Origin: Eubacteriales bacterium
Lineage (GTDB): Bacteria > Bacillota > Clostridia > Oscillospirales > UMGS1783
Direction: 5' to 3'
Assembly (NCBI GenBank): GCA_045541395.1
Contig: JAZQIZ010000031.1
Location: 3,519-67,518, forward strand
DNA: 64,000 bases
A model generated the notes under the pieces. It was not told the DNA's origin. It searched no databases and saw only the letters and a program-made list of their open reading frames with translations. The position numbers were made by a program, and so were the translations under genes. Of this stretch, positions 33,647-41,045 are shown in pieces (position 1 is the first letter of the stretch; every line of letters starts with the position of its first letter).

Positions 33647-35059
33647 TCAGTAACCGACAGCGAGGCCCAGAAGAAGCAGAGCACTTGTTAAAACAAGGTT
33701 CAAAAGCTGGAACTTCCAGGAGTATTTTACCCATTTGCCGTAGCTTACGTTTACAAGGCTTAAGGCTATAAGCAGGGCGGCGTTGGTTGGATAGAAAACG
33801 TTGGAGAAGCCGTCACCAAAGGCAAAAGCCAAAATTGAGAGCTGAGAGGATATGCCGAACATTGTGGCTATAGGGCCAATAAGGGGCATAAGCAGAAAGG
33901 CCTTTGCCGAGCCTGAGCTTATAAAGAAGTTCATAACCAGAACTATCAAATAAATAAACAGGATGATCCCCCATTTAGGCATACTGCCTGCGGCGGTAAC
34001 CGCGTAATGAAGGATGGTATCCAATATTTTAGCTTCGGTTAAAATATACTTAACCGAGCTTGCCATTAAAATAAGGAGCACGGCAGGCAAAATTGCAACG
34101 ATGCCGCTGCCAAATCCCTTCAGAAGGCCTTTAAGGCCGATGCCTGCTTTAAGACAGGAAACAACACCTGCAATAAGGAAGGAGAGGGCAACTATTATCA
34201 TAGTAAGGCTTTGCAATGCGGGAATAACGCCCGAAAGCAAAACGCAAACTATACCCAGACCTAAGATCAAACAGAAAAGAAGCAGGGCCTTATCCATATT
34301 TTTATCGGGGGTAAAGTTTTTCTCTTCGATATTAACGGGGCTTTCGTGTTTTTTGGCGTGATGGCGAACGTAAAGGGTAAGGGCTACGTAGATAAGCACA
34401 AAGCTGAGAATGCGCATAGAAACGCCGGAGAACATAGGCAGGCCTGCTATGCTTTGGGCAACGCCTACGGTAAAGGGGTTAAACACACCGGAGGCAAAGC
34501 CGCAACCGACCGCAAGTAAACTCATACCAAGGCCGGTAAAAATATCCCACCCTAAGGAAACGGCCAGGGAGACAACTATGGGCACCAGAGGAACACATTC
34601 TTCAAAAGAGCCTATAAAGGCACCCATTGCCATAAAGAAGAAAATAACGATATACATAAGCTTATAGCGGGCGTTACCGTATTTAACGGCTATACGCATA
34701 AGCATATATTCCATAAGGCCGCATTTTTCAAGGCAGGTAAACACACCGCCTATAACCAGCAAAAAGGCAATTACGGCAAGAAGAGTGCCGCCGCCTTCGG
34801 CCCCCAACACCAAAAAGGGAGAAAGGAGCCATTTCCAGAAAGGCAGACCGCCCTGAACCTCATTGAAGCCGCCTTCGGGAGAAATGACAAGATTACCGCT
34901 TTCATCCTCTACCCTCACAAACTCGCCGCCGGGCACAAAGAAAGTAAGAGTATATGTAAGCATAGAAAGAAGAGCTATAACCAAAATGGCAGTCAAGAAG
35001 GATCGCACATTAATATTCAAACCTTTTTTCTGTTCCATTATTTCACCTTTTTCGTTCAT
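33647..35059 (-). CDS. YfcC/DcuC-type anaerobic carrier (about 12 TM)
   Basis: 470 aa, highly hydrophobic. The N-terminal region (NVRSFLTAILVIALL...GGLPFWKWLLSPF) resembles YfcC-family transporters. Confidence 0.6.
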   Translation of the reverse strand: MNEKGEIMEQKKGLNINVRSFLTAILVIALLSMLTYTLTFFVPGGEFVRVEDESGNLVISPEGGFNEVQGGLPFWKWLLSPFLVLGAEGGGTLLAVIAFLLVIGGVFTCLEKCGLMEYMLMRIAVKYGNARYKLMYIVIFFFMAMGAFIGSFEECVPLVPIVVSLAVSLGWDIFTGLGMSLLAVGCGFASGVFNPFTVGVAQSIAGLPMFSGVSMRILSFVLIYVALTLYVRHHAKKHESPVNIEEKNFTPDKNMDKALLLFCLILGLGIVCVLLSGVIPALQSLTMIIVALSFLIAGVVSCLKAGIGLKGLLKGFGSGIVAILPAVLLILMASSVKYILTEAKILDTILHYAVTAAGSMPKWGIILFIYLIVLVMNFFISSGSAKAFLLMPLIGPIATMFGISSQLSILAFAFGDGFSNVFYPTNAALLIALSLVNVSYGKWVKYSWKFQLLNLVLTSALLLLGLAVGY

Positions 35060-35286: not shown

Positions 35287-35673
35287 ATGCAGAACAACAC
35301 CAATGATCTTCCGTTATTATTGCTTGACAACAGCAGTATGATGTCTGTGCTGAATCAGGGAGAATTCAAATGTGATAATCTTTCCTTTGAAGATGCTCAG
35401 CATATTCTGGAGATACACGATGAATCTATGACTTTGAAATGCTTTGCCAACCCCGATATTGAACAGGTTATATTCGGTCATCTTGGCGTAACAAAGCGCA
35501 ATTACACCTACAAGCGCATTCGCAATATGCGGGCGGGCCAGCACGCTATAGTTTTTAAATTATACGTTACCCCCTCTGAAACCCAGCCTGTTATTCAGGC
35601 GGATGACGGCGTAGAGGCAAAGAAAATTCAAAACGTTTACGTTTACTGTCAGCACATTGTACGATTAAAATAA
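35287..35673 (+). CDS. small cytoplasmic protein, possibly DUF1874 (STIV B116/YddF-like)
   Basis: 128 aa. The pattern LLLLDNSS...GEFKCDNLSFEDAQHIL...GHLGV...GQHAIVFKL resembles my memory of DUF1874. It has its own promoter and terminator. Confidence 0.35.
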   Translation: MQNNTNDLPLLLLDNSSMMSVLNQGEFKCDNLSFEDAQHILEIHDESMTLKCFANPDIEQVIFGHLGVTKRNYTYKRIRNMRAGQHAIVFKLYVTPSETQPVIQADDGVEAKKIQNVYVYCQHIVRLK

Positions 35674-35766: not shown

Positions 35767-35802
35767 GCAAAAAGAGAGCCTCGCATATTACTGCGAGGCT
35801 CT
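35767..35802 (-). terminator. rho-independent terminator of the pfl operon
   Basis: 11-bp stem agagcctcgca (35775-35785) with tgcgaggctct (35792-35802). CTTTTTG follows on the minus strand. Confidence 0.6.
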
Positions 35803-35827: not shown

Positions 35828-36061
35828 TTACATAGATTCGTGGATGGTTCTGCTAATAACATCATCCTGCTGCTCTTTTGTTAACTTGTTGAAGTTTACG
35901 GCATAGCCGGAAACGCGGATGGTGAGCTGGGGGTATTTTTCGGGATGAGCCTGAGCATCTAAGAGAGTCTCACGGTCAAAAACGTTTACGTTGAGGTGGA
36001 AGCCGCCATCGGAAACGTAGGCATCCAGCATATTAACAAGGTTATCGGTTCTCTGGGACAT
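35828..36061 (-). CDS. glycyl-radical domain protein (C-terminal piece of pyruvate formate-lyase; GrcA-like)
   Basis: 77 aa. ...[39 protein letters not shown] is the PFL glycine-radical loop and C-terminus. It has its own AAAGGAGA Shine-Dalgarno 6 nt before the ATG. Confidence 0.85.
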
Positions 36062-36078
36062 AATATTTCTCCTTTTTA

Positions 36079-38106
36079 TTAGTCTTCCCTGCCTAAAGAA
36101 GCGGGAGTAATAGAGAAGGTGTTGGATATACCGTCTCTGGAATAATCGTAAGGGATCTTTGCAACAGATTCAAGGGAAGCCAAAGCACCGTTGCAGTCTC
36201 TGCCGTGCATGGGGTTAGCACCGGGAGCCAAGGGTTCGCCTGCCTTACGACCGTCGGGTGTGTTGCCGGTATTTTTACCGTAAACAACGTTAGAGGTTAT
36301 AGTAAGGATAGAGGTGGTGGGGATAGAGTTTCTGTAGGTGTAATGAGAGCGGATCTTTTTCATAAATCTCTTTACAATATCTACAGCGATCTCATCTACT
36401 CTATCGTCATTATTGCCGTATTTAGGATACTCGCCTTCGATGTTATAGTCTACAACGATACCGTCCTCATTACGAACGGGGTAAACGGTTGCATACTTAA
36501 TAGCGGAAAGTGAGTCAGCCGCGCAGGAAAGACCTGCAATACCTGTAGCAAAGAAGCGGCGAACTTCGCTGTCATGGAGGGCCATTTCAATTGCTTCGTA
36601 GCTGTATTTATCATGCATATAATGGATGGTATTGAGGGTATTAACGTAAAGGCCTGCAAGCCATTCCATTATATTATCAAACTTAGCCATAACCTCGTTA
36701 TAATCAAGCTTATCATTGGAAACGATGGCCTGATATTCGGGGGAAACCTGTAAGGGTTTGCCGCTCGGATCCTTAACGATCTCATCCTTACCGCCGTTGA
36801 TAGCGTAAAGGAGAGCCTTTGCAAGGTTTGCTCTTGCGCCGAAGAACTGCATATCCTTACCTATTCTCATACAGCTTACGCAGCAGGCAATGCCGTAATC
36901 GTCACCCATTTCGGGACGCATAAGCTCATCACTTTCATACTGGATAGAGGAGGTTTTAATAGATATTTCTGCGCAGAACTTCTTGAAGGCTGCAGGGAGC
37001 TTCTTGGACCATAAAACCGTAAGGTTGGGCTCGGGAGCGGGGCCTAAGTTTACGAGGGTGTGGAGAGTACGGAAGGAGTTCTTGGTAACAAGAGTTCTGC
37101 CGTCAACACCCATACCGCCGATCGCTTCGGTTACCCAGGTAGGGTCACCGGAGAAGAGGGCGTTATATTCCTTGGTTCTCATAAACTTAACTATTCTCAG
37201 CTTCATAATGAAGTGATCCATAAGTTCCTGAGCTTCCTCTTCGGTGATAACACCGTTTTCAAGGTCTCTCTCAATGTAAATATCAAGGAAGGTGGAGGTT
37301 CTGCCGATAGACATAGCCGCGCCGTTCTGATCCTTTATAGCTCCTAAATAGCCAAAGTAAAGGAACTGAATAGCTTCCTTGGCGTTTTTAGCAGGCTTGG
37401 AGATATCATAACCGTAAGCTGCAGCCATTTCCTTTAAGCCTTTAAGAGCCTTGATCTGCTCGGCAAGCTCTTCACGGTCACGGATCTTATCGGCAAACAT
37501 TTCGCCGCCAAGCTGCAATTTATCTTCTTCCTTTTTCCGAATAAGGTAATCAACACCGTAAAGGGCAACTCTTCTGTAGTCGCCGATGATTCTGCCGCGG
37601 CCGTAGGCATCGGGCAGGCCGGTAAGAATATGAGACTTTCTTGCAAGGCGCATTTCGGGAGTGTATACGTCAAACACGCCGTCATTATGAGTCTTTCTGT
37701 ATTTGGTGAAGATCTCGGTTACCTTAGGGCTGATCTCAAATCCGTACATATTAAGAGCGCCGGTAGACATTTTAATACCGCCGAAGGGCTGCAAAGAACG
37801 CTTAAAGGGAGCGTCTGTCTGAACGCCGACGATTTTTTCAAGGGATTTATCAAGGTAGCCGGGGCCGTGGCTTGTTAGGGTGGATATTATTTCGGTATCC
37901 GCATCAAGCACGCCGCCTGCTTCTCTTTCTTTTTTGGTAAGGTCACAAACCATATCCCAGAGCTTTTTGGTGGCTTCGGTAGCGCCTGCAAGGAAGCTGC
38001 CGTCACCCTCATAAGGAGTATAGTTTTTCTGAATAAAATCTCTTACTTCTACTTCATCATTGCTCCACTTACCGGGAGTGAAGCCTTCCCATTCGTTGTA
38101 CCACAT
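36079..38106 (-). CDS. pflB: pyruvate formate-lyase, large catalytic piece lacking the glycyl-radical domain
   Basis: 675 aa, collinear with PflB from the N-terminus ([14 protein letters not shown]) through the active-site [12 protein letters not shown] to ...[10 protein letters not shown]. It ends in TAA-TAA. Confidence 0.9.
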
Positions 38107-38136: not shown

Positions 38137-38451
38137 TTAACCCTTATGTTCTTCTAATTTTGCATCCAGCCAAAATTCAAAGATCTCTTCAGGCTGATAG
38201 CCTGTTGCTTTTGCGAAGGGCACGCCGTTATCCGTAAGAAGCACTGTAGGCACTCTGTCAACCTCAAAATGCTCCAACAGCTCCATATTTTCGGGGGCCG
38301 CTTCTATATGTTTTAAAACAAAGTCGGTTCTTTTCTTGGCAATGGCGCCTAAGAGGTTCATCATGGAAATGCAGTTTGCACAGCCCTGGCCGCTTACCTC
38401 CACAACGCAGATGCCCGAAAGCTCCTGTTTGTAATTTTCCAAAGTTATCAT
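38137..38451 (-). CDS. thioredoxin-fold protein with CxxC (GCANC)
   Basis: 104 aa. VEVSGQGCANCISM...VDRVPTVLL pattern of the thioredoxin fold. Its ATG overlaps the pflA stop (ATGA). Confidence 0.65.
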   Translation of the reverse strand: MITLENYKQELSGICVVEVSGQGCANCISMMNLLGAIAKKRTDFVLKHIEAAPENMELLEHFEVDRVPTVLLTDNGVPFAKATGYQPEEIFEFWLDAKLEEHKG

Positions 38452-39182
38452 TTTATTATACCCAAAATCTCCTTTGCCCTGTATACTTCTTCCTTGGTTG
38501 GAGTGGGAATACCCTTAAGGGGATATTCCATACCAAGCTTTTCGTATTTCACCTGACCGAGGGTATGATAAGGCAAAAGCTCTATTTTTTCAACGCAGCT
38601 GAGGGACGCCGCAAATTCTGCAATAGAACGCAGATGCTCCTCACTGTCGGTAATTCCGGGGACAAGCACGTGACGAAGCCACATTTTCTTGCCTGCAGAG
38701 TTAAGAAGCCTTGCAAATTCCAGAATATTTTCATTGCCTTCGCCTGTAAGCCACTTATGCTGCACGGGATCCATATGCTTTATATCCAAAAGAAACAGAT
38801 CGGTATTGGCTATAAGCGTTTCATAGTTATGCAGTTCTTCCGGCTTAAAGCCACCGCCTGAGGTATCAAGGCAGGTATGAACCTTATTTTTTTTGAGTAT
38901 CCTGAATAACTCAGCTACTGCTTTTGCCTGCAGAAGGGGTTCCCCTCCCGAAACGGTAACACCGCCGCTTGCAATATAATTTTTATAACGCAGGACCTGC
39001 ACCGAAACCTCTTTGGGAGTAAGCTTTCTTCCCTCTTCCATATTCCAGGTATCGGGATTGTGGCAGTATTTGCATCTTAACGGACAGCCCTTTAAAAATA
39101 CCACAAAACGGATACCGGGCCCGTCCACCGTGCCGAAGGTTTCAAAAGAATGAATTTTAAGTTTTAAAATTTCCTCCGCCAC
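38448..39182 (-). CDS. pflA: pyruvate formate-lyase activating enzyme (radical SAM)
   Basis: FGTVDGPGIRFVVFLKGCPLRCKYCHNPDTW (CxxxCxxC) and GGVTVSGGEPLLQ. Confidence 0.9.
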   Translation of the reverse strand: MAEEILKLKIHSFETFGTVDGPGIRFVVFLKGCPLRCKYCHNPDTWNMEEGRKLTPKEVSVQVLRYKNYIASGGVTVSGGEPLLQAKAVAELFRILKKNKVHTCLDTSGGGFKPEELHNYETLIANTDLFLLDIKHMDPVQHKWLTGEGNENILEFARLLNSAGKKMWLRHVLVPGITDSEEHLRSIAEFAASLSCVEKIELLPYHTLGQVKYEKLGMEYPLKGIPTPTKEEVYRAKEILGIIK

Positions 39183-39247
39183 TGTCCCTCACCTCTCATT
39201 ATATTTTATCATCTTTTGGGTTTTTCGTCAACCAAAAAGCCGAATAA

Positions 39248-39973
39248 TTAATGACGAATTATACGAAGTTCTTTGTTATATTTAACAATATATCTTGCCA
39301 GTTCCTTGTAGTCCTTTATATTGGCAGGGAGCCACATACCCGAACGGCAGGCGGTATTAAAGGCGTGAGCGTCACTGCCGCCTGTAAGGGCTTTGCCCCT
39401 ATGCCTTTTTGCGGCCTTTAAAGCGGCAGCGTTATGGTTATATTCTTCGCCTGAACCGTTATATACTTCATAGCCGTCAAGAAGGCGGGCGGGCATCATT
39501 TCAAGGTAATCCCGCATTGGGTGAGCCTGAATAAGAGGCAGATCCTCTTCTTTTGTGATCCTTCTGAGCTTATTTAAGGAGTAGGTATGGATCATAGGGT
39601 ATTTTAAAAGAAACTCCTCGTCGGCACCCCAGATAAGATAATCCTCCGCACCGTCCTGCAAACAAAGCTCCACTCCGGGAAATACGGTTATGCCAATTCT
39701 GTCTCCCTCGGTCTTAGCGGCTCTGTAGCCTGCCTCATAGCGGTACACGAATTCTTCCCAGCTTATATTAAGGCGGTTCCAATCGCCGCCTTCGGGGGCG
39801 CAAAGGCGCTCGAAAGTGAATTTATTCATATGGTCGGTTATAAAAAGGCCGCCGTACTGAGACTGATAATAAAATCTGACCATCTGCTCCGCAGGGATCT
39901 GGGCGCAGCAGCTGACCTGATTGGTATGAACGTGAAGATCAAAGGGTGTACAGCCCTTTTCATCCAATAACAT
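39248..39973 (-). CDS. PHP-domain metal-dependent phosphoesterase
   Basis: FDLHVHT motif at the N-terminus. Start moved to the ATG at 39973 (GGGGAGG ribosome-binding site). The upstream 87 codons of the track ORF have no support. Confidence 0.65.
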   Translation of the reverse strand: MLLDEKGCTPFDLHVHTNQVSCCAQIPAEQMVRFYYQSQYGGLFITDHMNKFTFERLCAPEGGDWNRLNISWEEFVYRYEAGYRAAKTEGDRIGITVFPGVELCLQDGAEDYLIWGADEEFLLKYPMIHTYSLNKLRRITKEEDLPLIQAHPMRDYLEMMPARLLDGYEVYNGSGEEYNHNAAALKAAKRHRGKALTGGSDAHAFNTACRSGMWLPANIKDYKELARYIVKYNKELRIIRH

Positions 39974-40154
39974 AAAAACGCCTCCCCTGTACGTTAATAT
40001 ATCCTGTTCAGGACATACAGTATACCATAAGCGGGCGCTACTGTCAACGGAGCGCAGAGGCGGTAAAATTATAATTTTATTAACAATTTTAATGTTTACA
40101 ATTACATTTTTTGGAGATATAATAATTGAAGAATAAAGAAGGAGGCGCTTAAAA

Positions 40155-41045
40155 ATGGGCAGAAGAATGTTACTTATAATTAACCCTAAGGCCGGTACGC
40201 AGGGTTCTTCCCGCGGGATATTTTCTATGGCCAACGTCTTTTGCGCGGCAGGGTTAGAGCTTACCTTAAGGGTGACCCAGGCTAAAGACGATGCTTTTCA
40301 CACCGTTAAAAACACCGGCGCCGAATTTGACTATATTGTTTGTTCCGGCGGAGACGGTACTTTAAACGAGGTTATTTCGGGGCTTATGACTTTAGAAAAG
40401 CAACCTCTTTTAGGCTATATACCCAGCGGCTCCACCAACGATTTTGCTTCCAATTTAGGTCTTATAAAAAATGATTACAAGGGCGGCGCAAAAAGGATAG
40501 TAAAGGGTGCACCTAAAGCTATAGATATCGGCGCAATTGAAAACAGATATTTCAGCTACGTGGCCTCTTTCGGAGCTTTTACCTCTATTACCTACACCAC
40601 TCCTCAGACCTACAAGAACGTTTTGGGAAGAATGGCGTATTTTCTTGCGGCGCCTAAGGATATTGCATCTATCCGACCTTACAAGCTGAAGGTTACCGAC
40701 AAAAACGGCAACGTAACCGAAGGCGAATATATTTTCGGCTGCGTAGCCAACACCCTTTCCATGGCGGGAATACTTAACCTTGACGGACTTAAGGTCAATT
40801 TAGACGACGGGGTATTTGAATGTTTGCTTGTGAAAGTGCCTCATAACGCTTTGGAGCTTAACGAGATAGTTACGGCCCTTGTGACACAGGATTTTAACTG
40901 CCCTTATTTTGACATTATAAAAAGTTCTGTCTTTGATTTTGAATTTGAAGAAAGCGTTAACTGGACTATCGACGGGGAGCACGGAGCATTTGGGGAAAAG
41001 GTAAGTATCAAGGCCCTTAACAAGGCAATAAAAATAGTAATATAA
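40155..41045 (+). CDS. diacylglycerol/lipid kinase (YegS/DagK family)
   Basis: LLIINPKAG...VCSGGDGTLNEV...GSTNDFA motifs. Confidence 0.85.
   Translation: MGRRMLLIINPKAGTQGSSRGIFSMANVFCAAGLELTLRVTQAKDDAFHTVKNTGAEFDYIVCSGGDGTLNEVISGLMTLEKQPLLGYIPSGSTNDFASNLGLIKNDYKGGAKRIVKGAPKAIDIGAIENRYFSYVASFGAFTSITYTTPQTYKNVLGRMAYFLAAPKDIASIRPYKLKVTDKNGNVTEGEYIFGCVANTLSMAGILNLDGLKVNLDDGVFECLLVKVPHNALELNEIVTALVTQDFNCPYFDIIKSSVFDFEFEESVNWTIDGEHGAFGEKVSIKALNKAIKIVI

Follow-up and report, generated by a model that had tools for sequence, protein, structure and literature searches.

Pyruvate formate-lyase (PFL), the founding member of the glycyl radical enzymes and the most widespread of them, has to our knowledge always been described as a single chain. 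In its established mechanism, the activating enzyme PflA abstracts a hydrogen from a glycine of PFL, and the radical then moves to Cys419 and Cys418. We analyzed a stretch of 64,000 nucleotides (nt) from a Eubacteriales bacterium (assembly GCA_045541395.1, contig JAZQIZ010000031.1, positions 3,519 to 67,518), referred to here as the window, in which the cysteines and the glycine of a PFL homologue are encoded by two separate genes. An earlier reading of the letters alone (the sequence-only reading) had described the locus as a clean fission of the PFL gene into a catalytic piece of 675 amino acids (aa) and a glycyl-radical piece of 77 aa. The locus raises the question of whether the two genes encode the subunits of one working enzyme, or whether they reflect an artefact, or a relic of PFL lying beside an independent repair protein. 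Our analysis indicates that the pair is very probably an obligate heteromeric PFL, in which the radical domain forms a subunit of its own and is activated by the PflA encoded alongside. The parts of the pair are located in the window as follows.

36079 to 38106, minus strand: putative PFL large (catalytic) subunit, 675 aa, ending ...SLGRED, equivalent to E. coli PflB up to Asp678.
36880 to 36885, minus strand: codons of the active-site pair Cys408-Cys409 (E. coli C418/C419), motif GIACCVSCM, on the large open reading frame (ORF).
36062 to 36081, minus strand: junction, with TAA at 36081-36079, a second TAA at 36078-36076, a Shine-Dalgarno sequence AAAGGAGA at 36075-36068 and a 6-nt spacer to the ATG at 36061.
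35828 to 36061, minus strand: putative PFL small (glycyl-radical) subunit, 77 aa, ...RVSGYAV...HESM, equivalent to E. coli PflB 679-759.
35906 to 35908, minus strand: codon of Gly52, predicted to carry the radical (E. coli Gly734), within the RVSGYAV motif.

The first stop codon of the large ORF and the ATG of the small ORF are separated by 17 nt. The two ORFs are in different frames and are therefore not one ORF interrupted by a single stop codon. The large ORF aligned with residues 12-679 of E. coli PflB at 65.5% identity and the small ORF with residues 682-760 at 63% identity (both in precursor numbering). When aligned to the PDB chains, residues 4-77 of the small protein corresponded to PflB 681-759, and the large protein aligned up to the preceding residue. 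Because the two alignments abut, the cut can be placed between the equivalents of Asp678 and Glu679. Compared with E. coli PflB and with fused relatives, zero residues have been lost or duplicated at the cut, and the initiator Met is the only addition. The motifs described in the sequence-only reading (double TAA, 17-nt gap, Shine-Dalgarno sequence, 77-aa ORF, GIACCVSCM and RVSGYAV) are all present at their positions, and these alignments confirmed its statement that no residues are missing at the junction. Its assignment of the cysteine pair to the large protein and of the radical glycine to the small one was likewise correct (Cys408/Cys409 and Gly52).

Profile searches of both ORFs gave the same division, in agreement with that reading. 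The Pfam model PFL-like (PF02901) matched the large protein (3.3e-208), while the Gly_radical model, which has 106 positions, was divided between the two: the large protein covers positions 2-48 and the small protein covers 52-106. The NCBIfam model for formate C-acetyltransferase (TIGR01255) matched the large protein with 1092 bits (cutoff 994.2) over model positions 1-662 of 744, and the small protein over positions 665-744. The pair resembles single-chain PFL (E. coli PflB; PDB 2PFL and 1H16; TIGR01255) in its 63-65% identity throughout, the Cys-Cys pair, the arginines, RVSGYAV and the PflA partner. A PFL-like ten-stranded barrel domain at family-level score, the cysteine pair, the substrate-binding residues and a nearby PflA are all found. 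However, the RVSGY motif, which a PFL is expected to carry on the same polypeptide as the catalytic cysteines, is on the separate 77-aa ORF. The large protein has no strand beta10, no Gly loop and no C-terminal helix, and the small protein contains zero cysteines. A further difference from E. coli PflB is that the pair has no counterpart of a 5-residue loop (HHEAS in E. coli).

The arrangement is found far beyond the window. A one-genome-per-species scan with the small protein returned at least 584 relatives, and locus types were counted in the best 80. A separate small gene following a PFL that ends at the same residue was found in 71 of these 80 loci. The remaining ones comprised four fused genes and five small genes without a PFL within 5 kb, one of them (L079) at a contig edge. 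Protein clusters at 50% merged split and fused PFL, which is too conserved for clusters to separate the two forms. Two sister assemblies (GCA_054296225.1 and GCA_054285345.1), whose large proteins are 96% and 94% identical to that of the window, both carry the PHP-domain gene, pflA, a thioredoxin-like gene, the 675-aa PFL and the 77-aa protein in the same order. Their junctions keep the stop codon, the Shine-Dalgarno sequence and the ATG, with no continuous ORF across them, so that the sister genomes do not show what the sequence-only reading had named as a refutation. A length of 675-678 aa is shared by all of the large protein's 120 nearest relatives (82-100% identity), which, where named, are called 'formate C-acetyltransferase'. 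The split is a real, conserved, ancient and widespread arrangement and not an artefact. The fission is not peculiar to this locus; it is an old arrangement common to a large clade.

An assembly or sequencing error at the stop codon, or readthrough or frameshifting that gives one polypeptide of ~752 aa, would fit the short spacer in the window and the perfect PFL that the joined sequence makes. The junction speaks against this with two consecutive TAA codons and a frame change, and the exact 77-aa protein is recorded on 15 independent contigs. The sisters differ in their stop codon (TAA or TGA) and in their spacer (24 and 26 nt, compared with 17 nt in the window). Spacers elsewhere span 1-601 nt, ranging from 1 to 327 nt in the species-level loci and reaching 295, 419 and 601 nt in metagenome loci that are otherwise near-identical (L004-L007), where palindromic repeats have been inserted. 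Almost every small gene is preceded by its own strong Shine-Dalgarno sequence of the GGAG type. In two loci (L091 and L101) the order of the genes is reversed, which cannot give a single chain, so the two genes are independent units. We consider an artefact or recoding extremely improbable. The spacers vary, the frames differ and the order can be reversed, which excludes readthrough or frameshifting. The spacer of L004-L007 (for example, L005 5400-6000) is filled with short palindromic elements resembling repetitive extragenic palindromic (REP) sequences.

Both genes are under purifying selection and look functional. In pairwise comparisons, the ratio of nonsynonymous to synonymous substitution rates (dN/dS) ranged over 0.005-0.14 in the large gene and over 0.008-0.21 in the small gene. 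Six catalytic residues (E. coli R176, W333, C418, C419, F432 and R435) are present in the window and do not vary in any of the 68 large subunits that were aligned. A pseudogene was ruled out by the dN/dS values, which are well below 1, and by the invariant catalytic residues, and the view of the sequence-only reading that the locus is not decaying was upheld. The same results bear on the possibility that the 675-aa gene is a nonfunctional relic and the 77-aa protein only a GrcA-type cofactor for the repair of a full-length PFL from another locus. In a relic, 65-85% identity would not persist across phyla together with such dN/dS values and with all six residues invariant. It would also not end at the same residue in 71 species, nor be the sole form in the 120 nearest relatives.

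The structure of the pair was modelled with AlphaFold2 as a concatenated sequence, using an alignment block of large-only, small-only and full-length homologues. The model had a mean predicted local distance difference test score (pLDDT) of 90.1 and a predicted template modelling score (pTM) of 0.91. A run on the concatenated pair without an alignment gave a pLDDT of 35.9 and was unusable. The model superposed on E. coli PFL (2PFL) with template modelling (TM) scores of 0.96/0.95 and a root-mean-square deviation of 1.7 Å over 759 columns. At the junction, a 4-5-residue coil (672-675) is located between helix 668-671 and helix 676-692, the latter being formed by the first 17 residues of the small protein. 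This helix is followed by strand 697-702 (beta10), a helix, a hairpin (722-725/728-731) with Gly52 at its tip, and the C-terminal helix. Together, the large and small proteins are predicted to form a complete PFL fold. A further match in the fold search was PDB 1QHM, which is a stable fragment of E. coli PFL termed the 'large domain'.

The reading of the locus as a two-gene PFL, with the cysteine pair on the large subunit and the glycine on a small subunit that would be the substrate of PflA, was supported by every comparative test that we ran. Beyond the observed anatomy, conservation, separate translation signals, purifying selection and completeness of the fold, we infer that the two proteins form a complex, that PflA activates it and that the dependence is obligate. 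In the proposed mechanism, the large chain would provide the whole catalytic barrel up to the Asp678 equivalent, including Cys408/Cys409, and no glycyl radical could form on it. Because the glycine is absent from the large chain, this chain would work only with the small chain bound. The 77-aa chain would add one helix, the barrel strand beta10, the finger loop that holds Gly52 and the helix at the C-terminus. We expect the active enzyme to be a heteromer, probably of the form (large-small)2. In it, PflA would take the hydrogen from the small subunit's Gly52, the radical would move to the cysteines of the large subunit (Cys409 and Cys408), and the reaction would then run as in single-chain PFL.

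The small subunit shares features with GrcA/YfiD (TIGR04365; PDB 6OWR), which is also a small stand-alone protein with beta10, a Gly loop and, at the C-terminus, a helix and is activated by PflA. Residues 18-77 of the window protein align to YfiD 68-127. However, GrcA is 127 aa long, and its disordered N-terminal half, which is needed for docking (PMC8683613), is absent from the window protein. Unlike GrcA, the window protein has a helix equivalent to PflB 681-692. The sequence-only reading had placed the break roughly where stand-alone GrcA/YfiD proteins begin. The cut is 14-17 residues N-terminal of the structured start of GrcA/YfiD (PFL residue 693), and the small subunit therefore has one extra helix. 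The TIGR04365 model matched the window protein with 99.9 bits, below its cutoff of 170, and over model positions 64-126 only. GrcA coexists with and overlaps an intact PflB, whereas the PFL here ends exactly at the start of the small protein. Finally, GrcA acts on a complete PFL with a damaged radical domain; the adjacent PFL here is genetically without that domain, and no second PFL was found besides the split pair in the 64-kb window, to which the search was confined.

A closer match was obtained with the NCBIfam family GrcA3 (NF038360), whose 78-position model is covered end-to-end, with residues 3-77 of the window protein matching positions 4-78. The scores, however, divided the relatives according to two clades of large subunits described below. 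The cutoff is 158 bits; clade A, which includes the window, scored 153.7-157.4 and lies under it (window, 155.5 bits), while clade B scored 162.6-171.4 and lies over it. The window protein is a near miss belonging to a sister clade of the family, with the length and the PFL-adjacent context of GrcA3. The clade-B GrcA3 proteins (Blautia, Atopobiaceae and Gastranaerophilales) likewise follow a truncated PFL. The name GrcA3 implies an optional repair part, whereas our comparative data indicate a constitutive subunit.

For a spare part beside a relic, one may point to the public names of the small protein ('GrcA', 'GrcA3', both also preceded by 'autonomous glycyl radical cofactor', next to 'glycine radical domain-containing protein'). 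This possibility is also favored by small genes located beside rubrerythrin and Fur-family genes with no PFL linked (L033 and L044), by the solitary copies in phage-like contigs, and by the restriction of the search for a further PFL to the 64-kb window. In addition to the conservation of the large gene, two features of the small protein argue for the opposite: it has no equivalent of the ~60-residue N-terminal region of GrcA that is important for docking on damaged full-length PFL (PMC8683613), and it begins exactly where the large protein ends. We therefore consider it very unlikely that the 77-aa protein is a spare part only.

The unlinked copies nevertheless suggest a wider use of the small protein. 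In L033 (4436-5234) the small gene is located directly after the rubrerythrin gene, and in L044 (4992-6284) directly before a Fur-family regulator and rubrerythrin. These are oxidative-stress neighbourhoods in two different lineages. A scan of IMG/VR returned 20 AT-rich loci, in most of which the small gene is solitary. It stands alone in phage-like contigs of 4-357 kb (L092, L094-L100 and L102-L110), which encode proteins 72-90% identical to the window protein. On a 333-kb contig (L098) it is flanked by nrdD and nrdG; the L094 copy is surrounded by PHROGs without an assigned function and adjoins phrog_6721 and phrog_2110; and some other solitary phage copies are near thyX-like genes. The phage small genes match phrog_1209, annotated as 'unknown function'. 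One phage-like lineage, found in two samples (L091, 3495-6273, and L101), has both pieces in the reversed order nrdD, nrdG-like, small, large. Genetic code 4 applies to it: three Trp positions of the PFL are encoded by TGA. Its large protein is 675 aa long and ends with SLGKEED, and the ribosome-binding site in front of the large gene shares nucleotides with the small gene's stop codon. No pflA was found within the L091 and L101 loci. Phage T4 Y06I, phrog_1209 and phrog_21327 are also phage-encoded glycyl-radical proteins of the PFL type. The copies found here differ from T4 Y06I and the PHROG families in their high identity to the window small subunit, in their hosts, which are likely to be split-PFL organisms, and in the lineage that carries both pieces.

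These copies would fit a small protein that acts as a diffusible cofactor, in which PflA activates the free protein, docking on the large chain is transient, and the protein is exchanged after damage, with chromosomal and phage copies topping up the pool. The unlinked copies adjoin oxidative-stress genes, and solitary phage copies are located between nrdD and nrdG or near thyX-like genes. In the established model, moreover, the radical domain of any PFL must leave the barrel to reach the activase (PMC13450708). Against free activation, E. coli YfiD is not activated unless a PFL variant is present (PMC8683613), and the tight operon linkage and matched conservation of the two genes also fit a stable subunit. 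We regard a freely diffusing cofactor as rather unlikely.

The heteromeric subunit remains the better supported reading, and it can be compared with an engineered pair. Andorfer et al. 2021 (PMC8683613) measured a kcat,app of 204/s for E. coli PFL truncated to residues 1-695 and combined with YfiD residues 61-127; the wild-type value was 105/s. Like the natural pair, this PFL consists of two pieces without overlap, and after installation of the radical its catalysis matches that of the wild type (PMC8683613). It differs in being artificial and in its cut, which is 17 residues further C-terminal. The natural cut lies before the helix preceding beta10, and the natural pair has presumably co-evolved for assembly.

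Several observations weigh against an obligate heteromer. Binding of the engineered pair was undetectable by isothermal titration calorimetry and its activation was poor (PMC8683613); because of this, tight assembly of the natural pair has to be assumed. The small gene is unlinked to PFL in the five of 80 loci mentioned above, although L079, at its contig edge, is uninformative upstream, and most phage copies are solitary. These unlinked and solitary copies imply that members of the family can also act in trans as spare parts. The window protein also lies 2.5 bits under the GrcA3 cutoff. With respect to affinity, the helix preceding beta10 on the small subunit may supply what the engineered pair lacks. 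Because of the unlinked copies near rubrerythrin and Fur-family genes and the copies in phages, the split could be seen as a cheap, replaceable cartridge for the oxygen-labile part of the enzyme, of which 77 residues would be remade after O2 cleavage at the glycine. Judged from this genomic context, such a role is a fair conjecture that falls somewhat short of probable.

In the window, the two genes are preceded on the minus strand by pflA and a thioredoxin-like gene, and the order pflA, thioredoxin-like gene, PFL large subunit, PFL small subunit spans 39231-35775. These four genes appear to form a single operon, whose other features are as follows.

39203 to 39231, minus strand: candidate sigma-70-like promoter upstream of pflA (TTGACG, 17 nt, TAAAAT, with a TG extension), a consensus match only.
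38448 to 39182, minus strand: pflA, pyruvate formate-lyase activating enzyme, radical SAM, 244 aa (TIGR02493 PFLA 308.8 bits, cutoff 231.75; Pfam Radical_SAM and Fer4_12).
38137 to 38451, minus strand: thioredoxin-fold protein, 104 aa, with a C-A-N-C motif (Pfam Thioredoxin 4.7e-07); its start overlaps the pflA stop by 4 nt.
35775 to 35802, minus strand: candidate intrinsic terminator, with an 11-bp stem including 7 G-C pairs followed by a T run, 26 nt past the small ORF.

Promoter-type matches across the whole region were not more numerous than in a shuffled control. The pflA gene is located two genes upstream of the large gene, and the linkage of pflA and PFL is kept in related loci. Scans of the window with Rfam and for tRNAs gave no match. 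Directly upstream of the operon is a PHP-domain gene (39248-40234, minus strand), a position that is kept in the sister genomes. The 328-aa ORF called for it in the window, with a TTG start, is probably too long, because the sister genomes call the PHP-domain protein at 241 aa. A 128-aa ORF without a Pfam match (35287-35673, plus strand) converges on the end of the operon, and beyond it is a DcuC-family anaerobic C4-dicarboxylate carrier (33647-35059, minus strand).

Split PFL was found in Christensenellaceae and other uncultured Clostridia, Lachnospiraceae (Blautia and Faecalimonas), Oscillospiraceae and Ruminococcus. It was also found in Acholeplasmatales, Anaeroplasma, Erysipelotrichaceae (Breznakia blatticola DSM 28867), Amygdalobacter indicium, Atopobiaceae, Coriobacteriaceae, Olsenella and Gastranaerophilales, and in a few metagenome-assembled genomes (MAGs) binned as proteobacteria or Bacteroidaceae. 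We constructed a neighbour-joining tree of the large subunits with 100 bootstraps, from a sample that was picked by similarity to the small protein and is hence biased. All split forms and the four fused forms grouped apart from E. coli PflB and more distant representatives with a support of 81. Clade B had a support of 99, clade A together with the fused forms 74, and the split forms alone, with the fused forms excluded, 0.

The two clades differ in gene order and in the end of the large subunit. In clade A, the order is pflA, thioredoxin-like gene, large, small, and the large subunit ends with SLGK[DE][DE]. In clade B, the order is large, small, pflA; the large subunit has an extra acidic tail of 10-35 residues, and the small subunit is 78-84 aa long. 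This tail (VFxGDLDxDL) follows the cut site and often has a Cys-rich end, such as GCCE, CGCCEGTC, CGCC, CACCEPN or PDCGCC (L049, L059, L060, L063, L064, L067, L068, L071, L072, L074-L077, L085 and L086), and the small subunit of L064 ends with ...GNSCGC. The Cys-rich tails might serve as a metal site or have a thiol function, and they occur where the thioredoxin-like gene is missing. MAFFT places the acidic tail at the helix that is now on the small subunit, with a similarity too weak to claim it as a vestige. A thioredoxin-fold protein of ~100 aa, with the invariant motifs SGE(S/G)CANC, VPT and GYQPEEILE-W, is encoded between pflA and the large gene in most split operons of clade A (L001-L061). 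Neither the four fused loci nor any clade-B operon has the gene. Its product could have a role in thiol or radical protection, or in activation. In one Ruminococcus MAG (L062, 2461-4580) the alignment of the large protein falls into two parts; the protein has an insertion around residue 600 and an extended acidic tail, and its open frame is 811 aa.

The four fused PFL genes (L047, L069, and L058 with L070) encode 750-753 aa in the order pflA, pflB, and they fell inside clade A in every bootstrap. They are possibly secondary re-fusions, which is favored because the split forms were never monophyletic without the fused forms in 100 bootstraps. The simplest reading that this biased sample favors is one old fission followed by later re-fusions. 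With respect to the origin of the split, the sequence-only reading had proposed an evolved insertion of a stop, a Shine-Dalgarno sequence and a start. An evolved two-gene form, rather than a frameshift, was borne out; as to the route, the split could equally have arisen by in-place insertion of these signals or by duplication of the C-terminus and subsequent truncation.

Other glycyl radical enzymes, namely HPAD (gamma), BSS (beta/gamma) and MASS (beta/gamma/delta), also combine a large catalytic chain with small chains (PMC13450708). However, the small chains of those enzymes belong to the Fe-S or rubredoxin-like proteins, and it is the large chain that retains the radical glycine (PMC13450708). 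The window protein, with zero cysteines to ligate an Fe-S cluster such as that in the HiPIP-like fold of HPAD gamma and BSS beta/gamma, and with RVSGYAV, is of a different kind. In a review of the glycyl radical enzymes from June 2026, HPAD, BSS and MASS are the only ones listed with small subunits, YfiD is given as the sole kind of spare part, and a split PFL is not mentioned (PMC13450708). For Candidatus Mycoplasma girerdii, the copy has been interpreted as a replacement part (PMC5476646). We found no description of a natural split PFL in the open-access literature, although an earlier description elsewhere is possible, and 'GrcA3' was not found in any open-access paper searched. The sequence-only reading knew of no described two-piece PFL. 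This stands for a natural split in the open-access literature, but the small protein had already been catalogued as GrcA or GrcA3. The genes are therefore already in the catalogues, while their reading as an obligate two-subunit PFL appears to be undescribed in that literature.

The broadest version of this reading is that the split heteromer is the standard PFL in a large clade that comprises gut Bacillota, mollicute-like lineages, Coriobacteriia and Gastranaerophilales. The radical domain would then be an exchangeable, consumable cofactor with its own cistron, with extra copies near peroxide-stress genes, and would be supplied by phages as an auxiliary gene that sustains host fermentation. 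This is possible but, taken as a whole, doubtful. If the domain is exchangeable in this way, oxygen damage would cost 77 residues instead of ~750, and the phage-borne copies suggest that the small piece is a limiting, consumable part. The natural pair can be regarded as evolution's answer to the construct of the Drennan laboratory, which bound poorly. It would provide a ready-made system for studying whether the activase acts on the free domain or on the complex, how the domain exits and re-enters the barrel, and how oxygen damage is repaired. Thousands of gut-genome entries annotated as a 'GrcA/GrcA3 spare part' and as 'formate C-acetyltransferase' probably represent a single enzyme in two parts. 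Formate metabolism in the organisms with a split PFL would be mis-scored by pipelines that rely on counts of full-length PFL or treat 675-aa PFLs as truncated.

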